Assembly (NCBI GenBank): GCA_044892525.1 | Contig: CM097885.1 | Span: forward strand, 33,234,001-33,294,000 | From: Schmidtea polychroa | Lineage: Eukaryota | Direction: 5' to 3' | DNA: 60,000 nucleotides | Shown: positions 7,856-44,690 of the stretch, piece by piece | How the letters are laid out: the number at the start of each line of letters is the position of its first letter | How positions within the stretch are numbered: the first letter of the stretch is position 1 | Made by a program: the position numbers and the translations under genes | The notes under the pieces: generated by a model | What the model saw: the letters and a program-made list of their open reading frames with translations, nothing else | Database searches by the model: none | What the model was told of the DNA's origin: nothing

Positions 7856-7947
7856 AATTAAAGTAGGTAGTTAGGAGCCCGCTGCAGCAACTCCCCCCCT
7901 GCTGCACGATTTTTTTTGCTGCAACTTTTTATTACGCAATTGTTCCA

Positions 7948-8330
7948 CACTATAGTGAGGGGGTCTCGATGGTCCTGGGATTTTCAATACAAAAAAATTT
8001 TTTCAATACAAAAACGATGGTCCTGGGATTTTCAATACAAAAATCTGACTACCACTAAAAAAGCATGGAATTTTCAGACTATAGTGAGGGGGTCTCGATG
8101 GTCCTGGGATTTTCAATACAAAAAAATTTTTTCAGTAGAAAAAGGCGGTCTCAATAAAAAAAGCATGGAATTTTCACACTATAGCGAGGGGGTCTCGATG
8201 GTCCTGGGATTTTCAATACAAATAAAATTTTTTCAATACAAAAATCCGACTACCAGTAAAAAAGCCAAGGATTTATCAGACTATAGGTGGTCTCCTTGGT
8301 CCTGAGAAACAGGTGGTCTACACTAAAAAA
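7948..8330 (+). repeat. subterminal ~100-130 bp tandem units of element A
   Basis: Repeated ACTATAGTGAGGGGGTCTCGATGGTCCTGGGATTTTCAATAC, mirrored at ~20740-21180. Confidence 0.85.
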
Positions 8331-8339
8331 CGTGGTAAA

Positions 8340-8820
8340 TTTTTTCAATTAAAGTAAATAATGGTTCTAAAAAATTAAATTACAGTTAATTATGGTCCAA
8401 AATTTTCAATTACAGTAAATTATGGTCAAAAATTTTCAATTACAGTAAATTATGGTCAAAAATTTTCAATTACAGTAAATTTTGGTTCTAAAAATTAAAT
8501 TAAAGTAAATTATGGTTCTAAAAAAATTAAATTAAAGTAAATTATGGTTCAAAAAATTAAATTAAAGTAAATTATGGTCCAAATTTTTCAATTACAGTAA
8601 ATTATGGTTCAAAATTTAAAATTCCAGTAAATTATGGTCCAAATTTTTCAATTATAGTAAATATTGGTTCTAAAAAATTGAATTACAGTAAATTATGGGC
8701 TAAGATTTTTGAATTAAAGTAAATTATGGGTCTAAAAATTGAATTAATGTAAATTATGGTTCTAAAAAATTAAATTAAAGTAAAGTATGGTCCAAATTTT
8801 TAAATTAAGTAATCAATGGT
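8340..8820 (+). repeat. ~31-bp minisatellite (AATTACAGTAAATTATGGTC...)
   Basis: Tandem units seen directly. The mirror at ~19840-20710 has more units. Confidence 0.9.
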
Positions 8821-9109
8821 AAAAAATTTTAAATAAGTAAATTAAAGTTATAATTTAAAAATGAGTAATGTAATAAGTAAATTAAAGTAAGATTTTAAAA
8901 TTTATTAACAAAAAATAGAAGGTGTTTGAGAATTGAAATTTTTTAATGAAAATTTTTATGAAATAATTTTTTAAGTAATTTTTAATAGAAATTTTAATGA
9001 AATATTTTTTAAGATAATTTTTAATGGAAATTTTTATGGAATAATTTTTTAAGTTAATTTTTAATGGAAATTTTTATGAAATATTTTTCAATGACAAATT
9101 TGAATAATA

Positions 9110-9799
9110 ATTCAACAACAAACCAACAACTTAGTACCAACAACCAGTAAGTTACGAACATGTAGTTACAACCAGATACCTACAACTAGTTATTAACAAC
9201 CAGTTACCTGATACCAAGTACTTACAACCACCTACCAAGTACTAACAACCCACAACAACCAGGTACTAAGCAATAATTACCAACAACCACCTAACAAGTA
9301 CTAACAACCAACAACAACCAGGTACTAAGCATTAATTACCAACTACTAAGTACCTACAACCAACTACTAAGTACCTACAACCAACATCAACCAGATACTT
9401 ACAACTAGATATTAACAACCAGTTACCTGCTACCAAGTACTTACAACTAGATACCACGTACTAACTAACTCTCAACCCCCACCTACCCATTAACTAGCTA
9501 CTAAGTACTAACAACCAGCTAACAACTAGATACCACGTACTAACTAACTCTCAACCCCCACCTACCCATTAACTAGCTACTAAGTACTAACAACCAGCTA
9601 ACAACTAGATACCATGTACTAACAACCGTCAACAACCAGGTACTAAGCCTTATCAACCTACAACTAGTTACTAACAACCAGTTACCTGATACCAACTACT
9701 AAGTACCTACAACCACCTACCAAGTACATACAACCAACATCCACCAGGTACTAAGCATTAATTACCAACTACCAAGTACATACAACCAACATCAACCAG
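9110..9799 (+). repeat. A/C-rich strand-asymmetric degenerate tandem repeat (CAACCAACTACTAAGTAC-like)
   Basis: G-poor repeated words. It continues at 11997-12300 and 13320-13610 and is mirrored at 18855-19545. Confidence 0.85.
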
Positions 9800-11996
9800 A
9801 ACTCTCTCACTCTCGGTCGATGTTGGCTTAATTGTTTTTAACGCTTCCAAAATATTCTTCAAATTGCCCGAAATAATCCCATTTAACTCATATTAATTAA
9901 ATTCTTTAGTCAGGGATTTGTTTATATCCTCATTTATCGGCATTGTCTTGAACCGCGATGCTACGTTTTGTTGTAATTTATCCAAAAGTGTTGTACTTTG
10001 CGGCTGACTTATTCCTGTTGCTACTGTTGTTATTTCGCTGCAATTTTGTTCTTCTTCAGAGTTAACATCCTTTTGAAAGTGCTTGTTCATAATATCTTTT
10101 ATTGTTTTTAAAATTTCGGTTTTAGAACACAAGTTTAGCTCTTCAAAGGAAATATTTGATTTTAATATTTGTGGATTCTGTAAGAATTGTATAACTGATA
10201 CTATTTGCTTATTTCTTCTTGCGTTAAATCTTTTTTTAATGCAGAAAGAAGTTCTTTAGCCAGACTACTTCTATTTTCATTTATAGTTTCGAATAGGAAC
10301 TGGAAAATACCTTCGCTAGTTAATAAATTTGAATCTTCTTTACCGAGTGCTTCAACAGTTAATTTAACTGGCTTTAAAATATTCATTAAATTTTCCAAAA
10401 TAGTGATATCATTTTCTTCAATAATATAATTTTCAATATTTAAAAACTTTAACGTATCATTAACACTTTCTTTAATTTTCAAATATCTCTCAATCATCAC
10501 TACAATAGTGTTCCATCTAGTTCGGCAATCGAACAATAATGAAAGTTCTTTCCCATGCTTTTCTTTTATTTTATTTTGCAGAATAGAATTTTTTGTTGGT
10601 TATAGTTTAAAATATTTCACGATTTTCCTCAAACGATTTAAAATAATATTAATGTCACTATTAATATTTGGTACTTGTATGTTGTAATCTTCAAAATATG
10701 TGCTTTCATCAGAAAGTTCAGAGTCCGAGGAAGATAAATAAGAGTCAATTTGTGGTAAATATTCGACAGGTTTCTTATACAGAACGTCTAAAATAGCCAA
10801 GTGAACACCATGGTTGTAGCAAAGTTGATGGTATGACGGAATCAATTTACCAAACTTTACCATAACAACTGCACCATCACTTGTGCAACTAACTATGTCC
10901 GAAAAGCTTAGTCCAAAATCACGCAATCTATTTTTAACCATTTCTACAGCCTTTTCACTTGGACAAGAGCCATCTATTCTTGCAAGTCCTAAATTACAAA
11001 ATTTACCATCACTGTAGTGTAGATTAATGTTCATATACCGCCGGTTTCTTGTACTAGTCCATTCGTCTGTTGTGATGCTGAATTTGGTGTTGCTGGTTTT
11101 TAATACATTGATTTCATCGCATATATGACTTTTTATTTCATAATAATAATCTCTGACAAGTTTTTGAATATCGGATTGATGTTTTGGTAGCGTATAGCCC
11201 CGCTCAGTAATTGATTGTCGGATGAAGCTACTATTACTGATGGCACGAAAAGATATTCCATCCTTTGCAACTAATCGCGAAATAATTTGAGCTAAAGATG
11301 CTCGTTTTACAAATTTAAATATAGATGATTGAAATTTTGGCTTTTTGGCAGGAAGATTTTCTTCGGTTTCATTCTCTTGGTGTAAGGTATTTTTGGTCTT
11401 AATTGATATACTATGTTTCGTCTTTAAATGACGTATTAAACCAGTTGTTGATGATCCTTTAATGGATATTTTGTTTGTGCAGTAATTGCATACTGCATAT
11501 TCGCCTTTTTCATTTTTTTTGTAATGTTTCCATGATTCTGATTCCATTATTGGGAAGTCTAATTTTAAATTTTGAATCTACAAGTAAAAAATTTCGTTAA
11601 GAAGTTGTAATAATTTATTAATTCAGTGTTATTTGAAAAATATACCTTCTTTTATTTTCGAAATATTTTTGAAATATAATAATCAGTGTCTTTACGAAAT
11701 CAAACTAACATAACAAAACATTCATTTTGCATGTTAAAGAAAATCATGGAAACACAATAATCACAAAAAAAGCAATGCAATTAGATTCAAAAAAAACCTT
11801 TTTTTTAATTTTTCTCATAGCAAATTATCTCTCACAAAAAAAAAGAATACCTAGCAACTAAATTTTAAAAAAATTATAAATTTTTTATTCTTGTCTCGTC
11901 GAGAAGTACCATAATGTCTCGGCGAGACGAGAAGTTAAAAAAAAATACCATTCTAGCGAGAAATTTCTCGCGAGAAATCTCGAGACAGACACTCTA
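9800..11996 (-). mobile_element. 3'-truncated hAT transposon (BED-finger transposase pseudogene) in left arm of A
   Basis: The 5' end is TAGAGTG. ORF 10600-11547 has a BED finger, TTDEWTS, SDGA and CYNHGVHL, and ORFs 10201-10536 (TRWN) and 9893-10132 follow. It is truncated at TSTESERV. Confidence 0.9.
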
Positions 11997-12668
11997 CATG
12001 CAACCAACTAGCTACCAAATACTAACAACCAACAACAACCAGGTACTAAGCATTATCAACCAACTACTAAGTACCTACAACCAACTATCTACCATCTACC
12101 ATGTACTAAAATCCGACAACAACCAGGTACTAAGCATTAATTACCTACAACTAGTTACTAACAACTAGATACCAAGTACATACAACCAACATCAACCAGG
12201 TACTAAGCATTATCAACCAAGTACTAACAACCAAGTAACTTACCTAGTACTAAGCACTTTCAACTAGATACCAAACACTTACAACCAGATGACCACATGA
12301 AATTATTGGTTAAATATGAAAATAAGGGTTATAATTAGTTGTTTAGTAAATTATGGTGTAAAATTAAGTAATAAAGGATAAATAGGAAAATTAAGGATAA
12401 GTAAATTAAAGTTAAAAATTTTAAATAAGTAAATTAAGGTTCAAAATTTAAAATTAAAGGAAACAATGGTTTAAATTTTAAATTAAAGCTAAATGAGTAA
12501 ATTAAAGTAATAATTTTTAAATAAGTTATGTAATAAGTAAATTAAACTAAGATTTTTAAATTTATTAACAAAAAATAGAAGGTGTTTGAGAATTGAAATT
12601 TTTAAATGAAAATTTTTATGAAATATTTTTTAAGTTAATTTTTAATGGAAATTTTAATGGAATAATAA

Positions 12669-12699
<31 letters not shown>

Positions 12700-13189
12700 A
12701 AAAATAATAATAATAATAATTAAAATAATAATAATAATAATTCAACAGTTACCAACAATCGGTTACTAAATATTTTTAACTAGGTGCTGACAAATAAGTA
12801 CCAAATACTTACAACATGATACCACGTACTAACTAAATCTCAAACAACCAAGTAAAAACAACCAAGTACCAACAATCAACTAAATATTCTTTATTGTATT
12901 TTATGAATTGTTTTTTAAATTAATTGTTTATCTATCTTCAAAAATATGTTTAATTACAATCAGTAGAAAAACCTTTTCAAAATGTCTAAATTTAATAAAA
13001 ATGTTTATTTTCATCAAAAATGAATAATTGTCAACTCAACACCACGTGGAATTCAAAATAATTTAAATTACAATGAAAGACTAATGAATTCTAATTCACA
13101 AAACATTCTTCTTTTAAATGATAACTACTGACTTATTATTGTATTGTAAAATCGCATTCAATAAATACTTATTGTTGATCAGTTTTATT

Positions 13190-13329
13190 ATATATACTAT
13201 GAGTTTATCCGACAGGATGTTTTGACCCCCTAAGGGTACAGGTCGTAAAGGTACTGGTCGTAAGGGTACTGGTCGTAAATGTATTAGTCGTAAGGGTACT
13301 GGTCGTAAGGATATTGTTAACACTCAACC
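13190..13329 (-). promoter_or_regulatory. conserved Polinton-associated module (15-bp repeats + palindrome + TATA), divergent copy
   Basis: TATATACT...TATCCGACAGGATGTTTTGACCCCCTAAGGGTA followed by about 6 GGTCGTAAGGGTACT-type units. Function is inferred. Confidence 0.55.
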
Positions 13330-14599
13330 ACCACCTACCCATTAACTAACAACTAAGTACTAACAACCAGCTAACAACTAGATACCAAGTACATCAACCA
13401 GCTACTAAGCATTATCAACCTACAACTATATAACAACAATCAGTAAACACTGTACCAACTACCAAATACAAGATACCAAGTACCAACAATCAACTAACAA
13501 CACATAAAAATAATAGCAATTAAATACAAAATATTCTTCATCGCATACACTATTTTCTTATCAAATTCTAAAAAGTCAACCAACTACTTACAACCAACAA
13601 CTATGTACTAACAAATTGATTTTTAAAAGCAAATACTCTTCACTTGAAAAATTGGATGAAAAATTAATTGAACTCAAGGCATCAATAACTAGGTAAAAAT
13701 TGATTAAATTATTGTAAAAAATTTAAATTATTCGAAATAAATATCATAAAAATTTAATTAATGGACAAGAAAAAATTCTAGTCATCCAGTAAATAAAAAA
13801 ACTACTGATCATTCAAGTTGAATCAACTAAGATAATAAATTAATAAGATAAGATCTAGTAGATAATTGATTTAGATTGAATAAATTAATTGAAATAAAAT
13901 TAATTTTAAGTATTTTTTTAAAAGTAATACATGTACTCAAATTGATTGACTGATTTCTCAATATATTCAAAAAATCAGTATAAATTCATTACAATTATCA
14001 AAGTCAGCAATCTACAATAAAAATAATTATCATTAAATTCCAAAAGAGACTAGATAGCTAATGATAACATCTAACAAACCAGTAAATTTATTTAAATGAC
14101 AATAATTGGTATATCCAAGTGAATTCTCCAATAAAATCATCTAAAAAGCATCAAATTTCCCTGAAATATCTATATCTTTTAAGATTAGTATCTTATCGAT
14201 AAGTACTTGTTAAAGATCATATATTCACCTCAAACTAACAAGATTCCTTAAAATCCCTTAAATGACTATATTTCAACCCTTAATTCATATTATTACAAAT
14301 ATTTCACTAAAATCATCTAAAAAGCATCAAATTTTCCTGAAATAATTCTATCTTTAAAGATTAGTATTTTATCGATAAATATCCTTAAAAGGTTATATAT
14401 TTCCCTCAGACTAATAAGATTGCTTAAAATCCCTTTAAATGACTATAATTCTAGCTTTAATTCCTATTATCACGAATATTATAAAACATGTAAAATAATT
14501 TGATCATTAACACTAAATAATTTATAAAATCTAATGATAAAAGCAGTTATAATTAAATTTTTATTCTAAACATAAATCACTCTATTTGAAATTTACAAT

Positions 14600-15720
14600 A
14601 ATTATTACTGTACAATATAACTGACTAGGTCCCATTGAAAGATTAAATTTATCCATTCAATAAAATATATTTCTTCAAATGATCATTTTTACCGATATTC
14701 AACCGATTTAATTACTAATTAAAATCACCCGATAGATTTCTTTCAATAAAGATCAATTTTATTTAGTTGTTGTCGATGTTTTAAGCCCATATTCTTCAAC
14801 TTTTGTCATTCTCCGCCTAAATAAAGATAAAAATAAATTAAAGTTGATATCAATCCCAATTATCTGTAAAGTTTTCATTGTCAAAACCAAGTAAATCGAT
14901 CATTATCTCTACTTAATAAACCATAAATCTAAATTAATATACAATGGATTAATCACAACCTAATAAAACGATATAATTATTATTGATTCATAACTGACTA
15001 ATGTATTGCAATTTCCTTAAAAACATTGATATTTTACCAACATCACCCTTAAAAAATCATATATTCCCATCTTAACCCATTCCTCATTAAATTTAACCGA
15101 CTATATCTCCCTTACAATGGTATATTCCCATCTTAACCGATCTTTCATTACATTTAACCGACTATATCCCCTTAAAAGATCATATTTTCCCCATCTTATC
15201 CGATCTCTCATTAAATCTAACCAACAATATCCCATCTTAACCAATCTCTCACCAAATATTTCTACCCCTTTAAACATCTAACCGAATATATCCTTCAATT
15301 CTACCCACTTGAATCCTCCTTTAATTCAATTCAGTCTTAAAATCTTTAAAGAACTTCAAAAATATGACTTAATTGTTATAGACACCAAATATTCTTCCAT
15401 TGAAATAATTTAGTAGCTATGTAGTAAGAGTTCACTAAAAGATCAAAAATCAATATTTTCTACAAATATTTACCATCAAATACTGGAGATGATATATATT
15501 GATTGATCATAATTCTTCATCGATTCAGCCAATCATTTTCAAGCAATAACAGCAAACTAAATTTCTTTATATCCTACAATAATTATCACGTAAATTTAAA
15601 GTCCCTGATAAAGTTAACTGGTTTCTTAGCTTATGTTTTTAAAGATCATCAATGTGTAAATATTCTTAGAAAATTATTGAAAAAAATTATCTAGTCAAAT
15701 ATATTACAAAGTTATCATCA
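14600..15720 (-). pseudogene. heavily decayed gene with ~60-nt internal repeats, shared by elements A and B
   Basis: Colinear homology with ~37650-38620 (e.g. TGTCAAAACCAAGTAAAT, CCATTGAAATAATTTAGTAGCT) and ~20-codon repeats at 15050-15290. No intact ORF remains. Confidence 0.4.
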
Positions 15721-16330
15721 AAAATTTATTCTATCACTTAATTATTAACCTAATTGTCAATGAAATTAATTTTTATTTTAAAACTATTCAATAAAATACA
15801 ACTAATTATCAAGAAATTAATTAAATTTAATTAAATTTATCACCATTAAAACTTTTAATCAGTCAACATGAAATTCTTAGAAAATTATTCAATATGCTCA
15901 TCAAAATTTATCCTATCACTTGATTATTGTACAAACTTTAATTATTAACCTCATTAAAAATAAATTTTTATTTAAAATTAAAAAACCAATCAATAAAAAT
16001 ACATTCAATTATCAAGAAATTAATTAAATTTACCTTAGAATTAGCATTAAATTACAGATATTCACAAAAAATTACGGAAATTCATGAAAATAATAGAAAT
16101 TCACAAAAATAATGGAAATTCACAAAATTGATAAAAAATCACAAAAATGATAGAAAATTACAAAAAATGATAGAAATTCATAAAAATGATAGAAATTCAT
16201 AAAAATGATAGAAATCCGCAAAAATGATAGAAATTTACTTGAATATTTACTAAAACCATCAACTCTAAAAATTATCAATGAATGCCTTAAACAAATTTGC
16301 CTAATTAATCATTCAAATAAAAGCATTAAA

Positions 16331-16437
16331 TACCTTTACGACTAATACCCTTGCGACATGTTGAATGTGAGTAGTACCCTTGTGAGCAATACCCATAGGG
16401 GGACAGAATATTTTGTCGGATAAACTCAGAGTATATA
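16331..16437 (+). promoter_or_regulatory. conserved Polinton-associated module
   Basis: TACCCTTG...TACCCATAGGGGGACAGAATATTTTGTCGGATAAACTCAGAGTATATA. Confidence 0.6.
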
Positions 16438-16605
16438 TTAATTAACTCATTCAAATTTTTCATTGAATTAGTAAAATTATCATAATTTCGATAAAAATTC
16501 TAAAGTGGTAAGCAATGTAAAGAGAATTATTCTTTAAACTTTGATAAAATTAACAATGAAGGTGGTAAGAATCATCATTAAAGTGAGGAAATTATTCATT
16601 ACTCG

Positions 16606-19600
16606 TAGTACCTGGTTGTTGTTGGTTGTTAGTATTTGGTAGCTAGTTGGTTGCATGTAGAGTGTCTGTCTCGAGATTTCTCGCGAGAAATTTCTCGCTA
16701 GAATGGTATTTTTTTTTAACTTCTCGTCTCGCCGAGACATTATGGTACTTCTCGACGAGACAAGAATAAAAAATTTATAATTTTTTTAAAATTTAGTTGC
16801 TAGGTATTCTTTTTTTTTGTGAGAGATAATTTGCTATGAGAAAAATTAAAAAAAAGGTTTTTTTTGAATCTAATTGCATTGCTTTTTTTGTGATTATTGT
16901 GTTTCCATGATTTTCTTTAACATGCAAAATGAATGTTTTGTTATGTTAGTTTGATTTCGTAAAGACACTGATTATTATATTTCAAAAATATTTCGAAAAT
17001 AAAAGAAGGTATATTTTTCAAATAACACTGAATTAATAAATTATTACAACTTCTTAACGAAATTTTTTACTTGTAGATTCAAAATTTAAAATTAGACTTC
17101 CCAATAATGGAATCAGAATCATGGAAACATTACAAAAAAAATGAAAAAGGCGAATATGCAGTATGCAATTACTGCACAAACAAAATATCCATTAAAGGAT
17201 CATCAACAACTGGTTTAATACGTCATTTAAAGACGAAACATAGTATATCAATTAAGACCAAAAATACCTTACACCAAGAGAATGAAACCGAAGAAAATCT
17301 TCCTGCCAAAAAGCCAAAATTTCAATCATCTATATTTAAATTTGTAAAACGAGCATCTTTAGCTCAAATTATTTCGCGATTAGTTGCAAAGGATGGAATA
17401 TCTTTTCGTGCCATCAGTAATAGTAGCTTCATCCGACAATCAATTACTGAGCGGGGCTATACGCTACCAAAACATCAATCCGATATTCAAAAACTTGTCA
17501 GAGATTATTATTATGAAATAAAAAGTCATATATGCGATGAAATCAATGTATTAAAAACCAGCAACACCAAATTCAGCATCACAACAGACGAATGGACTAG
17601 TACAAGAAACCGGCGGTATATGAACATTAATCTACACTACAGTGATGGTAAATTTTGTAATTTAGGACTTGCAAGAATAGATGGCTCTTGTCCAAGTGAA
17701 AAGGCTGTAGAAATGGTTAAAAATAGATTGCGTGATTTTGGACTAAGCTTTTCGGACATAGTTAGTTGCACAAGTGATGGTGCAGTTGTTATGGTAAAGT
17801 TTGGTAAATTGATTCCGTCATACCATCAACTTTGCTACAACCATGGTGTTCACTTGGCTATTTTAGACGTTCTGTATAAGAAACCTGTCGAATATTTACC
17901 ACAAATTGACTCTTATTTATCTTCCTCGGACTCTGAACTTTCTGATGAAAGCACATATTTTGAAGATTACAACATACAAGTACCAAATATTAATAGTGAC
18001 ATTAATATTATTTTAAATCGTTTGAGGAAAATCGTGAAATATTTTAAACTATAACCAACAAAAAATTCTATTCTGCAAAATAAAATAAAAGAAAAGCATG
18101 GGAAAGAACTTTCATTATTGTTCGATTGCCGAACTAGATGGAACACTATTGTAGTGATGATTGAGAGATATTTGAAAATTAAAGAAAGTGTTAATGATAC
18201 GTTAAAGTTTTTAAATATTGAAAATTATATTATTGAAGAAAATGATATCACTATTTTGGAAAATTTAATGAATATTTTAAAGCCAGTTAAATTAACTGTT
18301 GAAGCACTCGGTAAAGAAGATTCAAATTTATTAACTAGCGAAGGTATTTTCCAGTTCCTATTCGAAACTATAAATGAAAATAGAAGTAGTCTGGCTAAAG
18401 AACTTCTTTCTGCATTAAAAAAAGATTTAACGCAAGAAGAAATAAGCAAATAGTATCAGTTATACAATTCTTACAGAATCCACAAATATTAAAATCAAAT
18501 ATTTCCTTTGAAGAGCTAAACTTGTGTTCTAAAACCGAAATTTTAAAAACAATAAAAGATATTATGAACAAGCACTTTCAAAAGGATGTTAACTCTGAAG
18601 AAGAACAAAATTGCAGCGAAATAACAACAGTAGCAACAGGAATAAGTCAGCCGCAAAGTACAACACTTTTGGATAAATTACAACAAAACGTAGCATCTCG
18701 GTTCAAGACAATGCCGATAAATGAGGATATAAACAAATCCCTGACTAAAGAATTTAATTAATATGAGTTAAATGGGATTATTTCGGGCAATTTGAAGAAT
18801 ATTTTGGAAGCGTTAAAAACAATTAAGCCAACATCGACCGAGAGTGAGAGAGTTCTGGTTGATGTTGGTTGTATGTACTTGGTAGTTGGTAATTAATGCT
18901 TAGTACCTGGTGGATGTTGGTTGTATGTACTTGGTAGGTGGTTGTAGGTACTTAGTAGTTGGTATCAGGTAACTGGTTGTTAGTAACTAGTTGTAGGTTG
19001 ATAAGGCTTAGTACCTGGTTGTTGACGGTTGTTAGTACATGGTATCTAGTTGTTAGCTGGTTGTTAGTACTTAGTAGCTAGTTAATGGGTAGGTGGGGGT
19101 TGAGAGTTAGTTAGTACGTGGTATCTAGTTGTTAGCTGGTTGTTAGTACTTAGTAGCTAGTTAATGGGTAGGTGGGGGTTGAGAGTTAGTTAGTACGTGG
19201 TATCTAGTTGTAAGTACTTGGTAGCAGGTAACTGGTTGTTAATATCTAGTTGTAAGTATCTGGTTGATGTTGGTTGTAGGTACTTAGTAGTTGGTTGTAG
19301 GTACTTAGTAGTTGGTAATTAATGCTTAGTACCTGGTTGTTGTTGGTTGTTAGTACTTGTTAGGTGGTTGTTGGTAATTATTGCTTAGTACCTGGTTGTT
19401 GTGGGTTGTTAGTACTTGGTAGGTGGTTGTAAGTACTTGGTATCAGGTAACTGGTTGTTAATAACTAGTTGTAGGTATCTGGTTGTAACTACATGTTCGT
19501 AACTTACTGGTTGTTGGTACTAAGTTGTTGGTTTGTTGTTGAATTATTATTCAAATTTGTCATTGAAAAATATTTCATAAAAATTTCCATTAAAAATTAA

Positions 19601-21264
19601 CTTAAAAAATTATTCCATAAAAATTTCCATTAAAAATTATCTTAAAAAATATTTCATTAAAATTTCTATTAAAAATTACTTAAAAAATTATTTCATAAAA
19701 ATTTTCATTAAAAAATTTCAATTCTCAAACACCTTCTATTTTTTGTTAATAAATTTTAAAATCTTACTTTAATTTACTTATTACATTACTCATTTTTAAA
19801 TTATAACTTTAATTTACTTATTTAAAATTTTTTACCATTGATTACTTAATTTAAAAATTTGGACCATACTTTACTTTAATTTAATTTTTTAGAACCATAA
19901 TTTACATTAATTCAATTTTTAGACCCATAATTTACTTTAATTCAAAAATCTTAGCCCATAATTTACTGTAATTCAATTTTTTAGAACCAATATTTACTAT
20001 AATTGAAAAATTTGGACCATAATTTACTGGAATTTTAAATTTTGAACCATAATTTACTGTAATTGAAAAATTTGGACCATAATTTACTTTAATTTAATTT
20101 TTTGAACCATAATTTACTTTAATTTAATTTTTTTAGAACCATAATTTACTTTAATTTAATTTTTAGAACCAAAATTTACTGTAATTGAAAATTTTTGACC
20201 ATAATTTACTGTAATTGAAAATTTTTGACCATAATTTACTGTAATTGAAAATTTTGGACCATAATTAACTGTAATTTAATTTTTTAGAACCAATATTTAC
20301 TATAATTGAAAAATTTGGACCATAATTTACTGGAATTTTAAATTTTGAACCTTAATTAACTTTAATTCAAAAATATGGACCATAATTTACTGTAATTCAA
20401 TTTTTAGACCCATAATTTACTTTAATTGAAAAATTTGGACCATAATTTACTGGAATTTTAAATTTTGAACCATAATTTACTGTAATTGAAAAATTTGGAC
20501 CATAATTTACTTTAATTTAATTTTTTTAGAACCATAATTTACTTTAATTTAATTTTTAGAACCATTATTTACTGTAATTGAAAATTTTGACCATAATTTA
20601 CTGTAATTGAAAATTTTTGACCATAATTTACTGTAATTGAAAATTTTGGACCATAATTAACTGTAATTTAATTTTTTAGAACCATTATTAACTTTAATTG
20701 AAAAAATTTACCACGTTTTTAGTGTAGACAACCTGTTTCTCAGGACCAAGGAGACCCCCTCACTATAGTCTGATAAATCCTTGGCTTTTTTAGTGGTAGT
20801 CGGATTTTTGTATTGAAAAAATTTTATTTGTATTGAAAATCCCAGGACCATCGAGAGCCCCTCACTATTGTCTGAAAATTCCATGCTTTTTTATTGAGAC
20901 CACCTTTTTCTATTGAAAAAAAATTTTTTGTATTGAAAATCCCAGGACCATCGAGACCCCCTTGCTATAGTGTGAAAATTCCATGCTTTTTTATTGAAGA
21001 CCGCGTTTTTGTATTGAAAAAAATTTTTTTTTGTATTGAAAATCCCAGGACCAAGGAGACCCACCTGAATTGACCTAGAAAAATCCATGCTTTTTTTTTA
21101 TTGAGACCGCCTTTTTCTATTGAAAAATTTTTTTGTATTGAAAATCCCAGGACCATCGAGACCCACTCACTATAGTGTGGAACAATTGCGTAATAAAAAA
21201 TTGGAGCAAAAAAAATCGTGCAGGACGGGGGGGGGTTGCTGCAGCGGGCTCCTAACTACCTACT
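16606..21264 (-). repeat. right inverted arm of element A (~4.7 kb)
   Basis: Reverse complement of 7862-12048 with extra minisatellite units. Confidence 0.95.
16658..18854 (+). mobile_element. 3'-truncated hAT transposon (BED-finger transposase pseudogene) in right arm of A
   Basis: ORFs 17107-18054, 18118-18453 and 18522-18761 are identical in protein to the left-arm copy, with the same stop, frameshift and truncation. Confidence 0.9.
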
Positions 21265-21699
21265 AATTAAGACTTGATTTATTAACCATGTAATCAACAT
21301 GTAAAACAAATATATATGCAAGGTTTTAGTTTTAAACAAGTACTATTAACTTTAGATGAATTGAAAATGTTATTATTAGTTTTAGTAATTAATTAAATAT
21401 TTGATATATTATAAGAAAATAGTTGGAAATAAAATAGTTGTACGAAAATATATGAAGATATCGACTATTTCAATGAAGCCCTTGCCAATATCAAAACTGA
21501 TTTAAAGAAATTCAATACTTGTATTAAAAGAACTTCGAAAAATCTCTCATGTCCTGTTCAATCGGAATTAGAATAATCGAACTCTGCAAACAACTCAATA
21601 ATATTTAAATTTCCATTATTTATTTTGAATAATTTTATAAATTAAATAAATGTATTAAATAAATGATTATCTTTTTTATTAACAAAGACTAATATTATT

Positions 21700-31847: not shown

Positions 31848-32039
31848 TTAATTATAAAATTAATTAAAATGCTTTCTTGAAATTCGGTCCTTTATATATG
31901 TAAGTAGTATGATTGGTCCCCGCCAGACCAGGTCCCCTCCAGACCACATATACCCCCTCCCCCCCCCCCCGGGAAAAAAAAAAAAATTTTTTTTTTTAAT
32001 TTTTTGTTTTAATTAATTGGCCTGGAGGGGACACACTTT

Positions 32040-33390
32040 TTTTCATCCCAAAAATTAATGTTCCCACCAACGGATTTTATTGGACAATACCTCATCTTAA
32101 AGCTCAGTCCAAGACCTTTCGATTGATCCATAGAAGGTATCATCATCATTAATATTGACAAAGTTATTAACAATTGATGACCACCATCTTTTCAACGTTA
32201 AATTATTATTATTATTCAAAATATTATTAATTGGCCGGGCGGGGACATACTTTTTCTCATCCCAAAAATTAATGTTCCCATTATCCGAATTTATTAATAG
32301 ATAGCTTATTTTGAAGCGTAGTCTAAGACCTTTCAATTGAGCCATAGAAGGTATCATCATCATTAACATCGGCAAAGTTATTAAAGTTTTACCGAGACCA
32401 TTTTTCAAGGTCATTTATTTTTCAAAATATTATTTTCAAGGTCAAGGTCAAGGTCATTTATTTTTTTCAAGGTCATTTATTTTTTCAAGGTCATTTATTT
32501 TTTCAAGGTCATTTATTTTTTCAAGGTCATTTATTTTTTCAAGGTCATTTATTTTTTCAAGGTCATTTATTTTTTCAAGGTCATATTTTAAAATTTAAAT
32601 GTACAGAGTTCCCGACAACGATAATTATTCAACGATAGCTCATTTTAAAGCCCAATGCAAGACCTTTCGATTGATTCATAGAAGGTATCATCATCATTAT
32701 TATTGACAAAGTTATTAACAATTGATGACCACCATCTTTTCAACGTTAAATTATTATTATTATTCAAAATATTATTAATTGGCCGAGCGGGGACATACTT
32801 TTTCTCATCCCAAAAATTAATGTTCCCACCAACGGATTTTATTGGACGATACCTCATTTTAAAGCCCAATGCAAGACCTTTCGAATGAGCTAATGAAGGT
32901 ATCATCATCATTATTATTGACAAAGTTATTAACATTTTACCAAAAATCATTTTCAAGGTCATATAATTATTAAGTGGTCTGGCGGGCCCCTACTCTTTTT
33001 CATCCCAAAAATTAATGTTCCCATTATCCGAATTTATTGGACGATACCTCATCTTAAAGCTCAGTCCAAGACCTTTCGAATGAGCCATAGAAGGTATCAT
33101 CATCATTAATATTAACAAAGAGAATGACTCACCCAATGACTCACCCAACGATGTCTAATATTTTTAGAACGATGACTCATCAAGGTCATTCCCAAGGTCA
33201 TATGACTCATCAAGGTCAAGGTCATTTTTTTTTAATTTAATTTTTTGTTTTAATTAAGTAATCTTTTTATTTTCAAGGTCATTTAATTTTCAAGGTCATT
33301 TAATTTTCAAGGTCATTTAATTTTTCAAGGTCATTTAATTTTCAAGGTCATTTACTTTTCAAGGTCATTTAATTTTTCAAGGTCATTTAT
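32040..33390 (-). repeat. subterminal ~550-570 bp tandem units and 16-17 bp TCAAGGTCA arrays
   Basis: Repeated 105-aa pseudo-ORFs, plus (TTTTTCAAGGTCATTTA)n at ~32405-32585 and ~33270-33386. Mirrored at 45517-47130. Confidence 0.9.
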
Positions 33391-33428
33391 TAAAATAATT
33401 ATTATTTTCTAAGTTTTTAGTTTCTAAG

Positions 33429-33462
<34 letters not shown>

Positions 33463-33465
33463 TTA

Positions 33466-33540
<75 letters not shown>

Positions 33541-33626
33541 ATATATACACCGAGTTTATCCGACAAAATATTCTGTCTCCCTATGGGTATTGCTAGCAAG
33601 GGTACTACTCACACTCAACAAGTCAC
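33541..33626 (-). promoter_or_regulatory. conserved Polinton-associated module
   Basis: TATCCGACAAAATATTCTGTC core, mirror at 45274-45360. Confidence 0.6.
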
Positions 33627-33760
33627 ATGGTTATTGTTCACAAAGGTACTGGTAAAAATATTCAAGGTAAAATTTTCTAAATTCTAAATATTATTCTTTA
33701 AATATACGCTCAACTCATATAATTAGTGGTGTGCTCACTACAACATACATTTCAAAGTAA

Positions 33761-33842
<82 letters not shown>

Positions 33843-33874
33843 TATTATTACGCGCACCGGGAATATTATTATCA

Positions 33875-33985
33875 TATATACTCTTAATCTATCCGACAAA
33901 ATATTTTATCCCTTTATGGGTATTGCTCATATGGGTAATGGTAGCAAGGTGTACTACTCACATTCAACATGTCTCAAAGGGTATA
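33875..33985 (-). promoter_or_regulatory. conserved Polinton-associated module
   Basis: TATCCGACAAAATATT core, mirror at 44913-45022. Confidence 0.6.
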
Positions 33986-34206
33986 ATATAATTATTATTA
34001 AATTCTGACCAACTTAAATCAATGAAGGGGTAGAACAAAAATATATTAAGTTGCGGTATTTTAAAATTTAAAAATATTTTAAAAACTTATTTTGACACTA
34101 AAGTTTACTTAATTAACAAAGACATAATTATTGCACATGCTTTGCATAAATATTATTATTTTTTAAATTTTCAATATTTTCTTTTAAAGTATTAACACGC
34201 GCGGGA

Positions 34207-34251
<45 letters not shown>

Positions 34252-34259
34252 GTTAATGA

Positions 34260-34957
34260 AAAATCTAAAATATGGTTTACACACACAACCCCTCAACCAT
34301 TATTATTATTATCAGTATTAAAAACCTAAAATATTTTCTACACACACACACACACACAACCCATTAACCATTATTATTATTATTATCAATATCAAAAACC
34401 TAAAATATTATTTACACACATACAACTCATTAAACTTATTATTATTATTATTATTATTGCAAATATTAGTCAAAAACCTAAAATATTATTTACACTCACA
34501 CAACCCATTAACAATTATTATTATCAATATTAGTCAAAAACCTAAAATATTATTTACACATGCACAACTCATTAACCATTATTATTATCATTATTAGTGA
34601 AAACCTAAAATATTTTTTACACACACACACAACCCACTAACAATTATTATTATCAATATTAAAAACCTAAAATATTTTTACACACACACACATACAACTC
34701 ATTAAACTTATTATTATTATCATTATTAGTGAAAACATAAAATATTTTTTTACACACACACACACAACCCATTAACAATTATTATTATCAATATTAAAAA
34801 CCTAAAATATTTCTACACACACACACATGCACAACTCATTAACCATTATTATTATTGCAAATATTAGTCAAAAACATAAAAACACTCATAAACCATTATT
34901 ATTATCAATATTCGTGAAAACCTAGAATATTATTTACACTCACACAACCCATTAAAC

Positions 34958-34960
<3 letters not shown>
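34260..34960 (+). repeat. ~60-70 bp minisatellite (AAAACCTAAAATATT...ACACACAACCCATTAA)
   Basis: About 11 degenerate units, mirror at ~43940-44640. Confidence 0.85.
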
Positions 34961-35014
<54 letters not shown>

Positions 35015-35186
35015 ATTATTATTATTATTAGTGAAAAAACCTTAAATAATTTTTACATACTAAGTTATGGGGTAGAGTATTATTATGTTTGCAGTATTCT
35101 GTGTTTGCCTTTACAGGAAGTTGTCAATAAGGAGCGATAATTTTACACACACATTCTATATACACATACCTTGTTTAACATGGGTG

Positions 35187-35280
35187 TATATACTCCTAGT
35201 CTATCCGACAAAATATTCTGTCCCCCTATGGGTATTGCTCACAAAGGTACTACTCACACTCAACATATCGCAAGGGTATA
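35187..35280 (-). promoter_or_regulatory. conserved Polinton-associated module
   Basis: Full copy, mirror at 43621-43712. Confidence 0.6.
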
Positions 35281-35373
35281 TTAATTATGGTTAGTAAATA
35301 AAACCTATCACACACACTTTTATATTTAAACTATAAAAATCAAGACAAGAGAGGACAAGGCAAAGTTTATGCA

Positions 35374-37047
35374 TTTATTATTGCCAGGCCTAATGAGCAG
35401 TGACCAAATATCTGTGCCTGAAAGACACGGTGGATATTTGTTCGCGTCCACAAGGGTCGTCTGTGCCTTCCCCAAGTGGGGTCAAAAGAACCTGGGCATT
35501 ATAGTTTTCCGTACGGAACATTACGCCTAGCATGGGTAGTCAACTACCAGCACATTCGAAACGTATAATTTCAAAATACATGCGTCATTGGCACTATAAC
35601 CAAATTAATTAATGTTTTCACTAACACAAATATATATTTACAGAGGCCTCCCACTAGTTGGATTACAACCGCCCACCACGACGATCAGCTTGTAAATATA
35701 TATTAATTAAGGGATAAAGAGGACCCACCCAACCCTATTATATTTAATTTACAAATTTTTCTCGCTCTTCTGCTGGTATTCTATCTCAAATTATCATCTC
35801 CATCGGGCCATTTGGAATACATCTTGCAAATTGGACGTATTTCTTAGTCTCTGATGCGGCGTCAACTATCATTGCTAAAATTTATATTGATTTAAAAGCA
35901 ATTAACTTACATTATCTAGCATTTTATCGTCACAGGCTTGATAAATTAGGCAACTGTTATTTGTGGTATACTTTTTCAATGTCATTTCCCACCATAAAAC
36001 ACAGATACCTAAATATAATATATATATATTTTAAAGAATTAATTCATGTCTTACATTAATAATAATATTCTTCAGGTAGTACTTTACAATATCTAATTGC
36101 TAAAACATTGGTTTTTCCCATTTTTCTTGACATTCGTTGAAAGATTACATAATTTAAGTCTGATAATTCATGTTGAAGGACACCCACAATCAGCTAATTC
36201 ATTTAAAAAATCTAGAACATAGCAATGTTTCACCATTTTGTCTGGTTCATTTTCTTCTATAATTCATGTTTTAATAAGAAATTTCTAAATCCAGAACATA
36301 AGTCATTTAGTGTTTCACCATTTTGTTCATCTTCTTCATAATTATATAATTCATTTTCTTCATTACTAAGTAAAATAATTAAAATATTGTAGTAAATTCT
36401 TTATTTGCTTACTTTATGGATACTAAAACGAAAGAAATAAAGTTATTTCAAAAGTATATTTAAATAATTTAAATTTAAATAATTTAAATTTAGTTATTTA
36501 AACATATTTAAACAATTTAGTTATTTAAGCATATTTAAACATTAACATTATTATATAGTATAATTTTATATAATATTATAATTTTATGTACACTTATATA
36601 TCCTTCATTTAATTTTTTAAATTCAAAATTTATAATGAAGATTCTTTGAATTAAAAAATATTCTGTTAGTATTTCCAAACAGAAAACAACGAATTCAATA
36701 ATTAAAATCTTAATTTTCATGTTGTTAGGGTTGTGGCCAGAAGTTAATCGCCATCTAATCGTTTGTTCTCAATTTCGCTCATTTTTGTTCAAAACATTCA
36801 GGTGAGTTGTTATCTGGAAAGTTTCTTTGAGCTCAGTTTTGTTAAAACACTCACGGTATTTTTGAGGGACGTGACACTGGGAATAAATTAACAATGGGTG
36901 GTCATCCATACATGTTGTTGGTTTGAACTGTTGATTTATTTTAGAAATATGTATATTAAAAACATTTAAGGTATCATTCAGTAAAATAATATAGTATTTT
37001 TGAGTATTTTTAGTTGATTTATAAATAACAGTATTTTGATATATCAA
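35374..37047 (-). pseudogene. intron-containing cargo pseudogene(s), left-arm copy
   Basis: Reverse complement of 41853-43526. Confidence 0.5.
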
Positions 37048-37055
37048 TAAAGACC

Positions 37056-37141
37056 ATATACTCCTAGTTTATCCGACAAAATATTCTGTCCCCCTATGGG
37101 TAATGCTAGCAAGGGTACTGGTCACACTCAACAAGTCGCAA
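37056..37141 (-). promoter_or_regulatory. conserved Polinton-associated module (differs from its mirror)
   Basis: Full copy with several differences from 41757-41843. Confidence 0.6.
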
Positions 37142-38835
37142 TATTAATCATTTAGAAATTCTTAGGTAATTTAGTGAGATGATCAGAAATTCGTGAATAT
37201 TTTAAATGTAACTTTACACTTATGTCGAGCGACTAATTTATTGGTTAACTTTGTAGTCATTTAAAGCAAAAATTAATTTATTCATCTAATGTTCGTTACA
37301 ATAGTTAATAATATGAGAAAAACATGGTCATTATTCATTGATAATTTTAAATTCTTTATCATTTGGAGTAAATTTGTTTGAGGCAAAAATAATTAAAGGA
37401 GTCATAATAGAAATATGGTTATCATTTATCCAATTAAGGGGCCTATTATTTAGAAATATAAAGTAACAATTATTTTCTAATTTAATTAGATGATCATTAG
37501 ACGTAATATATCTTTGCGAGAAATTTAAGATGTTTGAGTAACCAAAACATGGACATTTTGTGCGATAAATTTATGAATATTGGTTATTTTTAGTCATTTA
37601 AAATAATATTTAGCAAAGGTAATTTAGCAAAATATCATTTATCCACCCGATAACAATATTCCTTCAATAGATTAACTGATATTCAACCTATTTAATTTCT
37701 GGAAATATAATTAAAATCATAAATTTCCTTCATGAAAGTTAAATTTTCTTTAGTTGTCGATGTCTAACTCTTTTAAGTCAATATTTTTGTTACCGTTATC
37801 TTCATAATGAATGTCCGTCTTTAAAATGTTAAATAAAATAATTTAAAGCAATAACCTTTGATATCAATTATCTCTAAATATTTCAAATATTGCATTGTCA
37901 AAACCAAGTAAATTAGTCATTACCCATTAATAAAACCGTGGATAATTAATAAAAACTGGTTCTGAAACATAAATTACTGTGCAATAACATTCATCACAAC
38001 CTCTAAAACGATATAATTTCACAGGAACTATTCATAGCTGACTATTTCCCTTGAAAATTTGATATTTTACCAATAAGAATATATAAATATTCAAAACATT
38101 AACCGATCCCTCACCAAATATCTTTACCCCTTAAAACACCTTAAATCGTATATATTACCATCTTAACCTTCACTAAATCCAACCGAATATAATTTCATCC
38201 ACTTGTGCCCTTTAATAAATCTTAAAATCTATAGAAAATTCTTCAAAATATGAATTTTATTTAATTGTCACAGACATTCCTCCATTGAAATAATTTAGTA
38301 GCTAAATTCAAAGAGTCCACTAAAAGATCAAAATTCATTAAAATAAATATTTAACCACATGTGTCATCAAATACCTAACTAGAGATGATAATATCTCATT
38401 GATTGATCATAATTATAACCATTATAACATGATATATCTTTCAAACTAAATTTAGGTATATTTTACAATAATTTTCAAGTAGATTTTAAATATATCATCA
38501 TCGTGAAAAAATTAGATTGTTTCAACTTTAGATTTTCAATATTTTAAAGTTCATCAATGTGTAAATATTCTTAGAAAAATATATGAAAAAATTATTTAGT
38601 CAAATTATCATTACAAAGTCATCATCATCATCAAAATTAATAAAATATAGCAAATTATCAATAAATTAATTAAATTTATCTTAGAATTAACACTAAACCT
38701 TAAATATTCTTTCAATTAACATGAAATTCACAAAAAAAAAATGTTAGTAAAATCCCGCTAACTCTAAAAAATTACCAATGAATTTAATGCCAAATAATAA
38801 CCAAATATTTGCCTAAATAAAATCATTAAAACACA

Positions 38836-38949
38836 CCAGTACCTTTACGACCAGTACCCTTACGACCAGTACCCTTACGACCAATACCCTTACAAGCAGT
38901 ACCCATAGAGGGAGAAAATATTTTGTCGGATAAACTCCGAGTATATATA
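38836..38949 (+). promoter_or_regulatory. conserved module with expanded 15-bp CCAGTACCCTTACGA repeats
   Basis: 4-5 units followed by TACCCATAGAGGGAGAAAATATTTTGTCGGATAAACTCCGAGTATATA. Confidence 0.6.
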
Positions 38950-39946
38950 TAATAAAACGAATTAACAATAACTCCATCAAATTGAATCAGTCAAATTATC
39001 ACAAATTTTAATAAAAAATCTTATTCTAAAGTGGTAAGCAGCGTAAAATCGAAAGATAATTTTAATAACACAGAGATAAAATTAACAATATTATTCTCAG
39101 GTGGTAAGAATCATCATTATTCTATGATTAATTAATAATGAAATTCAAAAAGGTGAAAATAAGGGTTTGAATTATTCATTAATGGAACGTAAACGTAAAT
39201 ATACCGAGAAGTGTCATAGATAAGATGGAAATATATTAATTGCATTTATTTAAAATTATTTCATGAAATTCATAAAAATTTATAAAAATGATCACTTTAA
39301 TAAAAAAAAAATATTTAATTCAATGTTCAAAGAAATAGTTGTTGGGAGGATTAGTGGAAAATGGGGGGGGGGGCTATAAGTGATGAGTATTTATAAATTA
39401 TTTCTAATATATGAGTGACTAACGAATAATAATAATGTGATAAACAATTATTTTGATAAAGTATTTAATCCAAAAATGACAAACATACATAACAAATGGT
39501 ATTTGACTAAGCAATTATGATAACTTTATATTTTAAATTTTGATTAACTCCTTTAATATTGAATTAATAATTATGAGATTTACTATTTTACATTAAATAT
39601 TTCAAAAACAGTTATTCTAAAAGATAATTCAAGATACATTACTCTTTTTAATCAAAATAATCTCTCAAAGTTAAGAAAATAACAAAGTGTGTCAGAACAC
39701 ATACCCAGCATTAACTTTACTTAAATTTATGAAAACATCAAGTAAGCAATGATAATAGAGGGATAACAGACTCAAAAATAAAATATTCTTACCACCTGAG
39801 AATAATATTGTTAATTTTATCTCTGTGTTATTAAAATTATCTTTCGATTTTACGCTGCTTACCACTTTAGAATAAGATTTTTTATTAAAATTTGTGATAA
39901 TTTGACTGATTCAATTTGATGGAGTTATTGTTAATTCGTTTTATTA

Positions 39947-40060
39947 TATATATACTCGGAGTTTATCCGACAAAATATTTTCTCCCTCTATGGGTACTGC
40001 TTGTAAGGGTATTGGTCGTAAGGGTACTGGTCGTAAGGGTACTGGTCGTAAAGGTACTGG
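39947..40060 (-). promoter_or_regulatory. conserved module (mirror of 38836-38949)
   Basis: Reverse complement copy. Confidence 0.6.
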
Positions 40061-41756
40061 TGTGTTTTAATGATTTTATTTAGGCAAATATTTGGTTATT
40101 ATTTGGCATTAAATTCATTGGTAATTTTTTAGAGTTAGCGGGATTTTACTAACATTTTTTTTTGTGAATTTCATGTTAATTGAAAGAATATTTAAGGTTT
40201 AGTGTTAATTCTAAGATAAATTTAATTAATTTATTGATAATTTGCTATATTTTATTAATTTTGATGATGATGATGACTTTGTAATGATAATTTGACTAAA
40301 TAATTTTTTCATATATTTTTCTAAGAATATTTACACATTGATGAACTTTAAAATATTGAAAATCTAAAGTTGAAACAATCTAATTTTTTCACGATGATGA
40401 TATATTTAAAATCTACTTGAAAATTATTGTAAAATATACCTAAATTTAGTTTGAAAGATATATCATGTTATAATGGTTATAATTATGATCAATCAATGAG
40501 ATATTATCATCTCTAGTTAGGTATTTGATGACACATGTGGTTAAATATTTATTTTAATGAATTTTGATCTTTTAGTGGACTCTTTGAATTTAGCTACTAA
40601 ATTATTTCAATGGAGGAATGTCTGTGACAATTAAATAAAATTCATATTTTGAAGAATTTTCTATAGATTTTAAGATTTATTAAAGGGCACAAGTGGATGA
40701 AATTATATTCGGTTGGATTTAGTGAAGGTTAAGATGGTAATATATACGATTTAAGGTGTTTTAAGGGGTAAAGATATTTGGTGAGGGATCGGTTAATGTT
40801 TTGAATATTTATATATTCTTATTGGTAAAATATCAAATTTTCAAGGGAAATAGTCAGCTATGAATAGTTCCTGTGAAATTATATCGTTTTAGAGGTTGTG
40901 ATGAATGTTATTGCACAGTAATTTATGTTTCAGAACCAGTTTTTATTAATTATCCACGGTTTTATTAATGGGTAATGACTAATTTACTTGGTTTTGACAA
41001 TGCAATATTTGAAATATTTAGAGATAATTGATATCAAAGGTTATTGCTTTAAATTATTTTATTTAACATTTTAAAGACGGACATTCATTATGAAGATAAC
41101 GGTAACAAAAATATTGACTTAAAAGAGTTAGACATCGACAACTAAAGAAAATTTAACTTTCATGAAGGAAATTTATGATTTTAATTATATTTCCAGAAAT
41201 TAAATAGGTTGAATATCAGTTAATCTATTGAAGGAATATTGTTATCGGGTGGATAAATGATATTTTGCTAAATTACCTTTGCTAAATATTATTTTAAATG
41301 ACTAAAAATAACCAATATTCATAAATTTATCGCACAAAATGTCCATGTTTTGGTTACTCAAACATCTTAAATTTCTCGCAAAGATATATTACGTCTAATG
41401 ATCATCTAATTAAATTAGAAAATAATTGTTACTTTATATTTCTAAATAATAGGCCCCTTAATTGGATAAATGATAACCATATTTCTATTATGACTCCTTT
41501 AATTATTTTTGCCTCAAACAAATTTACTCCAAATGATAAAGAATTTAAAATTATCAATGAATAATGACCATGTTTTTCTCATATTATTAACTATTGTAAC
41601 GAACATTAGATGAATAAATTAATTTTTGCTTTAAATGACTACAAAGTTAACCAATAAATTAGTCGCTCGACATAAGTGTAAAGTTACATTTAAAATATTC
41701 ACGAATTTCTGATCATCTCACTAAATTACCTAAGAATTTCTAAATGATTAATATAG

Positions 41757-41843
41757 CCTTGTGACATGTTGAATGTGACCAGTACCCTTGCTAGCAATAC
41801 CCATAGGGGGACAGAATATTTTGTCGGATAGACTAGAAGTATA
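41757..41843 (+). promoter_or_regulatory. conserved Polinton-associated module
   Basis: Full copy directly upstream of the cargo pseudogene. Confidence 0.6.
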
Positions 41844-41852
41844 TGGTCTTTA

Positions 41853-43526
41853 TTGATATATCAAAATACTGTTATTTATAAATCAACTAAAAATACTCAA
41901 AAATACTATATTATTTTACTGAATGATACCTTAAATGTTTTTAATATACATATTTCTAAAATAAATCAACAGTTCAAACCAACAACATGTATGGATGACC
42001 ACCCATTGTTAATTTATTCCCAGTGTCACGTCCCTCAAAAATACCGTGAGTGTTTTAACAAAACTGAGCTCAAAGAAACTTTCCAGATAACAACTCACCT
42101 GAATGTTTTGAACAAAAATGAGCGAAATTGAGAACAAACGATTAGATGGCGATTAACTTCTGGCCACAACCCTAACAACATGAAAATTAAGATTTTAATT
42201 ATTGAATTCGTTGTTTTCTGTTTGGAAATACTAACAGAATATTTTTTAATTCAAAGAATCTTCATTATAAATTTTGAATTTAAAAAATTAAATGAAGGAT
42301 ATATAAGTGTACATAAAATTATAATATTATATAAAATTATACTATATAATAATGTTAATGTTTAAATATGCTTAAATAACTAAATTGTTTAAATATGTTT
42401 AAATAACTAAATTTAAATTATTTAAATTTAAATTATTTAAATATACTTTTGAAATAACTTTATTTCTTTCGTTTTAGTATCCATAAAGTAAGCAAATAAA
42501 GAATTTACTACAATATTTTAATTATTTTACTTAGTAATGAAGAAAATGAATTATATAATTATGAAGAAGATGAACAAAATGGTGAAACACTAAATGACTT
42601 ATGTTCTGGATTTAGAAATTTCTTATTAAAACATGAATTATAGAAGAAAATGAACCAGACAAAATGGTGAAACATTGCTATGTTCTAGATTTTTTAAATG
42701 AATTAGCTGATTGTGGGTGTCCTTCAACATGAATTATCAGACTTAAATTATGTAATCTTTCAACGAATGTCAAGAAAAATGGGAAAAACCAATGTTTTAG
42801 CAATTAGATATTGTAAAGTACTACCTGAAGAATATTATTATTAATGTAAGACATGAATTAATTCTTTAAAATATATATATATTATATTTAGGTATCTGTG
42901 TTTTATGGTGGGAAATGACATTGAAAAAGTATACCACAAATAACAGTTGCCTAATTTATCAAGCCTGTGACGATAAAATGCTAGATAATGTAAGTTAATT
43001 GCTTTTAAATCAATATAAATTTTAGCAATGATAGTTGACGCCGCATCAGAGACTAAGAAATACGTCCAATTTGCAAGATGTATTCCAAATGGCCCGATGG
43101 AGATGATAATTTGAGATAGAATACCAGCAGAAGAGCGAGAAAAATTTGTAAATTAAATATAATAGGGTTGGGTGGGTCCTCTTTATCCCTTAATTAATAT
43201 ATATTTACAAGCTGATCGTCGTGGTGGGCGGTTGTAATCCAACTAGTGGGAGGCCTCTGTAAATATATATTTGTGTTAGTGAAAACATTAATTAATTTGG
43301 TTATAGTGCCAATGACGCATGTATTTTGAAATTATACGTTTCGAATGTGCTGGTAGTTGACTACCCATGCTAGGCGTAATGTTCCGTACGGAAAACTATA
43401 ATGCCCAGGTTCTTTTGACCCCACTTGGGGAAGGCACAGACGACCCTTGTGGACGCGAACAAATATCCACCGTGTCTTTCAGGCACAGATATTTGGTCAC
43501 TGCTCATTAGGCCTGGCAATAATAAA
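41853..43526 (+). pseudogene. intron-containing cargo pseudogene(s) of unknown family, right-arm copy
   Basis: Five short AT-rich GTAA...AG intron candidates (42488-42534, 42846-42891, 42990-43025, 43148-43211, 43259-43306) separate GC-richer exons with in-frame stops. AATAAA lies at 43521. Confidence 0.5.

Positions 43527-43885: not shown

Positions 43886-43939
<54 letters not shown>

Positions 43940-44645: not shown

Positions 44646-44690
<45 letters not shown>

Follow-up and report, generated by a model that had tools for sequence, protein, structure and literature searches.

How does one dead transposon come to lie, with the same lesions, at mirrored positions in both arms of a larger palindromic element? 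The question is raised by element A, which occupies positions 7862-21264 of a 60,000-nt, AT-rich window (G+C 25%) of Schmidtea polychroa (CM097885.1:33,234,001-33,294,000), the whole stretch of DNA analysed here, and which carries a broken hAT transposon in each arm. A preliminary description had proposed that the hAT inserted and decayed once, that the whole arm was then duplicated in inverted orientation, and that elements of this class can propagate hitch-hiking cargo. The comparisons below agree with one insertion followed by a much younger copying, and replace duplication of the whole arm with a mosaic right arm, in which a 3.7-kb tract repeats the left arm while the tip remains old.

The two hAT copies, 9800-11996 (minus strand) and 16658-18854 (plus strand), mirror each other exactly, their coordinates summing to 28654. 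Aligned without gaps, 8362-12048 and 16606-20292 show 1 mismatch in 3687 bases (3686 identical), a synonymous change in a Ser codon at 9956/18698. Divergence steps abruptly at 8362/20292: over their outer 478 aligned bases the arms differ by 25 substitutions and 10 gaps, far more than in the inner tract (Fisher p 4e-23), and the first 133 bases of the tips alone have 5 differing sites (p 3e-7 against this tract). The 30-bp array comprises 29.7 units on the right and 16.7 on the left, and the extra right units, about 390 bases mirroring left 8334 to ~8730 in register, carry variants of their own and are therefore old right arm sequence. Neither these outer differences nor the retained array bases are compatible with a duplication that took in the entire arm.

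From its tip inward, the right arm consists of old sequence to 20352, then of left 8606-8679 (74 bases), and then of left 8362-12048. At 4 sites where the old right units have other letters, the 74-base piece agrees with the left arm; the switch between it and the 3687-base piece falls within 15 shared bases. At the other end, inside 12048, the left arm continues in minisatellite, while the right arm abuts the core with no shared base. This inner join was compared with public short contigs from 4 of 22 listed runs, aligned to 12760-19030 and hence to one arm only; three of the runs, from two studies, belong to one organism and the fourth (X4) to another, and X1 and X20 are the others named below. 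Such contigs demonstrate presence only and cannot prove absence, and the sampled individuals may lack this locus; results on junctions and loose ends refer to the matches listed, which do not include the left inner join. Among them, 8 family contigs of X1 depart from the window sequence exactly behind 16605, so the inner join is new. Since the out-of-register switch and the new inner join both lie on the right, it is the right arm that carries both new joins (Table 1).

Table 1. Coordinates of the features of elements A and B, numbered from the first letter of the window.
Feature	Position	Strand	Description	Basis or match
Left target site duplication (TSD) of A	7856..7861	.	AATTAA	same 6 bases at 21265-21270
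Left tip of A	7862..8341	+	AGTAGG end, 100 unique bases, ~100-bp repeat array; outside the recent copy	arm alignment, Tandem Repeats Finder (TRF)
Left 30-bp tandem array	8342..8844	+	16.7 units; contains both template-switch registers (8362; 8606-8679)	
Donor tract	8362..12048	+	3687 bases: array, AT block, AACC-rich minisatellite, hAT, 52 minisatellite bases	
Left dead hAT copy	9800..11996	-	5' terminal inverted repeat (TIR), TAGAG end, at 11996; 3' end deleted at 9800	
Unpaired centre of A	12049..16605	+	remaining minisatellite, second AT block, core shared with B at 64-84%	
Inner junction	16605..16606	.	core abuts copied tract bluntly	family contigs diverge here; 0 shared bases
Recipient tract	16606..20292	-	inverted copy of 8362-12048, 1 mismatch	
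Right dead hAT copy	16658..18854	+	BED finger and catalytic core; frameshift near 18417-18423; cut after 18854	
74-bp piece	20278..20351	-	exact copy of left 8606-8679; inner 15 bases also equal left 8362-8376 (junction homology)	
Old right arm	20352..21264	-	own 30-bp units, ~100-bp array (4.3 units), CCTACT end	
Right TSD of A	21265..21270	.	AATTAA	matches left TSD
Element B	31903..47268	.	AGTAGT ends, TSD TATGTA, 7.2-kb arms, ~656-bp loop	

The transposon that serves as the marker of this event is a hAT by its first frame, which contains a BED finger (PF02892, E 7.7e-12), and by its homologs, of which 40 longer ones (557-683 aa) were found among 2068 candidates, the best 45% identical. Its lesions were placed by alignment to six of these homologs. 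The first in-frame stop is a TAA at 18052-18054; the frame changes at ~18411-18435, where the copy is one base shorter than the family; and a second in-frame TAA, which the preliminary description had not mentioned, stands at 18759-18761 in both arms. The 3' cut falls directly after TSTESERV, about 33 residues short of the end of the homologs; those with the PF05699 dimerisation domain align to 18857, so that the C-terminus is truncated in this copy. The shared insertion point, the premature stop (in both arms), the frameshift, the truncation and the single synonymous difference between the arms had all been described before, and all are borne out. Neither a 3' TIR nor a second 8-bp TSD is present, the 8 bases 5' of the hAT not being repeated at the 3' join, and the hAT therefore could not have moved itself after the cut. 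This absence lowers the standing of the sequence as a mobile copy, not its derivation from a hAT.

The family form of the hAT was taken from the contigs, and so from individuals other than the sequenced one. Position 18053 is C in every contig of all four runs, and the family therefore lacks the stop there; the stop letter itself was found in no contig of the four runs, with the limit that contigs cannot prove absence and the samples may lack the locus. One X4 contig and one X20 contig match the window to 18854 and then continue with other letters, the X4 contig in frame. Going by these contigs, the window copy alone has the first stop and the 3' cut, and a hAT with the same lesions scattered over many loci, the finding that would have spoken for separate insertions, is not what the family contigs present, since they lack the first stop and run past 18854. 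Family contigs differ from the window hAT by 16 of 1915 (X1) and 15 of 2045 (X20) substitutions, i.e. 0.73-0.84%. Among the differences listed, 13 were common to the runs, and all 12 of those checked have the private letter in the left and the right arm alike; of the 8 coding private letters, 6 change the residue, which fits neutral decay. Two independent insertions at this distance from the family would be expected to differ at ~32-37 sites in 2197, and the probability of at most one difference is ~3e-13. The hAT has drifted from its family about 55-60 times as far as each arm has drifted, a ratio that stays at 5 or more when the confidence limits are taken. Judged by these comparisons, the order was hAT insertion, decay, and then arm copying, as had been proposed earlier, and the copying is far younger than the insertion, because ~0.8% of drift stands against 1 difference in 3687 between the arms. 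Inside A the hAT went from one copy to two; that elements of this class propagate hitch-hiking cargo to other loci is not shown by this.

The X4 run also contributed a 2391-base contig of the hAT family (depth 8), which covers window positions 16946-18854 (1909 bases, 36 substitutions, 6 gaps) and extends beyond the cut. It may derive from a close relative, prey, contamination or horizontal transfer; X4, the one run used of the small-share group X4-X18, is no evidence on habitat or host.

Element A itself begins with AGTAGG and finishes with CCTACT, with AATTAA on either side; the first 30 bases of its TIRs are identical and its arms measure 4.2 kb. Mavericks are defined by a 6-bp TSD and by (AGT)2//(ACT)2 or (AG)3//(CT)3 ends (PMC8097293). 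A 6-bp TSD is present for both A (AATTAA) and element B (TATGTA), and the end motif agrees in 5 of 6 positions with (AGT)2//(ACT)2 in A (AGTAGG//CCTACT) and exactly in B (AGTAGT//ACTACT). Apart from the hAT, no open reading frame (ORF) of 150 aa was found in A, the centre (12049-16605) matched 0 Pfam families in all six frames at E 0.01, and no pPolB, integrase, ATPase, protease or capsid gene was found in A by the ORF list and by Pfam on the centre. Because no Maverick genes were found, A is not classed as a Maverick proper; it is probably a non-autonomous Maverick derivative. Its tip and core motifs gave 0 matches in viral and metagenome contigs. Summed contig depth is very high across 12760-16539; such depth does not equal copy number and is used solely to state that the core is far more abundant than the hAT. 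The centre was also considered as a separate TA-flanked miniature inverted-repeat transposable element (13190-16440), and this candidate was dropped, since B contains this module and this core in different arrangements. The left half of A further contains an older direct duplication of the AT block (8829-9004 vs 12489-12664, ~90% identical).

Element B has a comparable structure. Its right arm is composed exactly of pieces of the left arm, and the inner join near 39777, on the right, is new: an identical tip (165 bases, 0 substitutions between the arms) is followed by a 310-bp piece from a deeper register, a jump back, and ~7 kb with 2 isolated substitutions. Altogether the arms have 20 differing sites and 10 gaps in 7213 columns; 10 of these sites lie at the outer switch, 6 in an 80-bp patch (37063-37140), 2 at the inner join, and 2 are the isolated ones. 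No Pfam match was found in 35000-39800 in any of the six frames. The patch (37063-37140 vs 41755-41837) sits in a module of ~100 bp with ~15 copies in the window, and its letters match other copies of the module, which suggests conversion from a paralogue; contig depth peaks in the bin that contains this module, and AAT runs often come after it. At 22897-30040 lies a third element akin to B, in damaged form, with an AGTAGA-type right end at 30040 and a partial palindrome (22897-24133 vs 27410-28524); no left tip was found for it within the window.

The tract ends, the mosaic and the order of events are read directly from the alignments, and what may have produced them is break repair by template switching in place, with the right arm rebuilt from the left, a reading to which an even chance can be given. 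Element A would have inserted long ago, and its tips would have drifted ~5% apart. A TAG-ended hAT would then have entered the minisatellite of one arm, at the place in the order that the private letters indicate, lost its 3' end, and gained two stops, a frameshift and ~0.8% of neutral change. Recently, the right half of A would have been broken and resected; the outer end, in the 30-bp array, would have invaded the left arm, either in A itself or on the sister chromatid, and copied 74 bases there; after a second invasion, 303 bases farther out and via the 15 shared bases, it would have copied 3687 bases across the hAT, and the copied tract would then have been end-joined to the core at 16605, giving the right arm now seen. 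Host repair machinery, not hAT transposase, would thus have doubled the hAT, and the tips would have remained uninvolved. This reading is favoured because of the divergence step at 8362/20292, the mosaic right arm, the 15-base homology at the switch, the new inner join, the private hAT letters common to both arms and the inability of the cut hAT to move itself, and because in B, too, one piece is out of register and the new inner join lies on the corresponding side of the core. There are precedents: in Galileo, TIR extension has been proposed to occur via repair from the other TIR (Marzo et al., PMC3573991), and in Drosophila, kilobase repair synthesis with re-invasion is finished by end joining (PMC3330096).

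Several points weigh against in-place repair. No contig spans the stretch, and neither the two-arm state nor the ancestral allele with one hAT has been independently seen. The inner join lacks microhomology, and it is by parsimony that the direction is assigned and a single event assumed. Two family members, rather than age in place, could account for the 5% tip difference, part of which sits in arrays subject to turnover. The tip of B, being identical as well, fits whole-arm synthesis equally. At 18053, 15896 and other places, the window letter is in no X20 or X1 contig; those samples may therefore lack the locus, and they neither confirm nor refute two arms.

An unlikely alternative is arm-to-arm gene conversion, in either direction, in a still complete palindrome, together with a separate deletion of the right inner half and the loop. 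The converted tract could then have exceeded 3.7 kb. B is almost fully palindromic, so that the ancestor of A was probably likewise; the inner join is blunt; and a 1.4-kb deletion moved between the arms of the human Y palindrome P6 by conversion (PMC8600007). However, two events are required, the inner end of identity coincides exactly with the new join (12048/16606), and the out-of-register 74-bp piece is left unexplained by plain conversion.

It is also conceivable, though doubtful, that Maverick proteins mobilised an aged parent carrying a single hAT, that the protein-primed polymerase switched templates by copy-back at the core and then returned to the old right tip within the array, and that the product, with its doubled hAT, inserted here. 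The same mosaic signature in both complete elements of the window, the intact 6-bp TSDs and the great abundance of the core in the contigs accord with such an origin. On the other side, the tips of A have not been equalised although replication would begin there (two molecules could explain the tips), no second hAT locus was found, with the stop letter absent from the contigs of all four runs (a weak point, as contigs show presence only), and the search for a partner element gave 0 matches in the viral and metagenome contigs.

That the structure is an assembly or library artefact, a fold-back or an amplification chimera, is improbable. Near-perfect arm identity, locus-private letters missing at several places in the runs, and joins that lack contig confirmation are what an artefact could give; against this, the sequence returns to a different right tip, a matching TSD and unique flank, two separate switches are required, and the arms of B differ by the 80-bp patch with 6 substitutions and a gap. 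Duplication of the whole arm, or two independent insertions of one defective hAT, may be dismissed as very improbable, since mirror position and common lesions fit a single origin but the tips are 5% different, and the family lacks the first stop and the cut, with the probability given above for independent copies.

Whichever process acted, near-identical arms are easily taken as a sign of recent "snap-back" birth. The aged A regained 99.97% arm identity over 3.7 kb long after the death of the hAT, with the tips still 5% apart, and arm identity therefore does not date such elements. A is a dated example of how giant mirror-image elements keep their symmetry. As host repair alone, it would be a clean but unsurprising case. 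A broader and rather speculative proposal, which we think unlikely, is that, in giant palindromic Maverick satellites, every copying by Maverick proteins rebuilds one arm from its counterpart. If so, A and B would be two snapshots, with polymerase template switches at tandem arrays and core, DNA landing in one arm would be doubled and carried to new sites, and the mosaics would be a direct footprint of Maverick DNA replication, the mechanism of which is, to our knowledge, still a model. Nested insertions are ready markers with which host repair and Maverick replication could be separated genome-wide.

Other repeats of the window lie outside A and B. A second broken copy of the hAT family (ORF 58124-58639) has 186 of its coding bases repeated upstream in inverted orientation (57545-57730 vs 58415-58600, 98% identity). 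Broken transposase-like frames occupy 2431-4195 on the minus strand, with weak DUF4371 and hAT dimerisation matches, and another repeat is present in inverted copies (6814-7360 vs 30356-31116, 77-83% identity).

In the literature searched, which comprised few subscription papers and mostly titles and the starts of abstracts, no paper was found that deals with giant palindromic Mavericks devoid of genes, or with a nested transposon in mirror image in the two arms of such an element. Known systems nevertheless offer comparisons. The nested element resembles the hAT superfamily in its BED finger and in a family seen as near-identical contigs, but this copy is dead and has neither 3' TIR nor second TSD. 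Like Mavericks/Polintons, A and B have a 6-bp TSD and terminal inverted repeats, at a length of 13-15 kb, and their ends are of AG(T) type, in A with 5 of 6 positions of the motif; unlike them, A has no polymerase, integrase or capsid genes, and the arms are 4-7 kb, in contrast to 744 bp in C. elegans Polintons (10.1101/2024.01.15.575659), and are made of tandem arrays and a nested hAT. As in the human Y palindrome P6 (PMC8600007), a kilobase structural change from one arm is found in both, although there it is a 1.4-kb deletion in a 110-kb chromosomal palindrome; in A it is a 2.2-kb insertion, the setting is a mobile element, and the inner junction is new. The Drosophila P{wa} assay (PMC3330096) likewise shows kilobase templated synthesis, dissociation, re-invasion and end joining, but in that assay the sister locus serves as template once P has been excised, whereas here the template would be the inverted arm after a presumed break. 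In Galileo/Foldback elements (PMC3573991), too, internal sequence is drawn into the inverted repeat, and repeat counts are unequal between the TIRs. A shares with such cases what marks TIR extension or conversion, a nearly identical tract within a single element that ends at older sequence or at a new join. The copying of arms is thus a process already known from other inverted repeats, of which A is a variant in a Maverick-type palindrome; unlike Galileo, of the P superfamily, it has Maverick-type ends, and its 3.7-kb tract contains a foreign dead transposon that dates the event.

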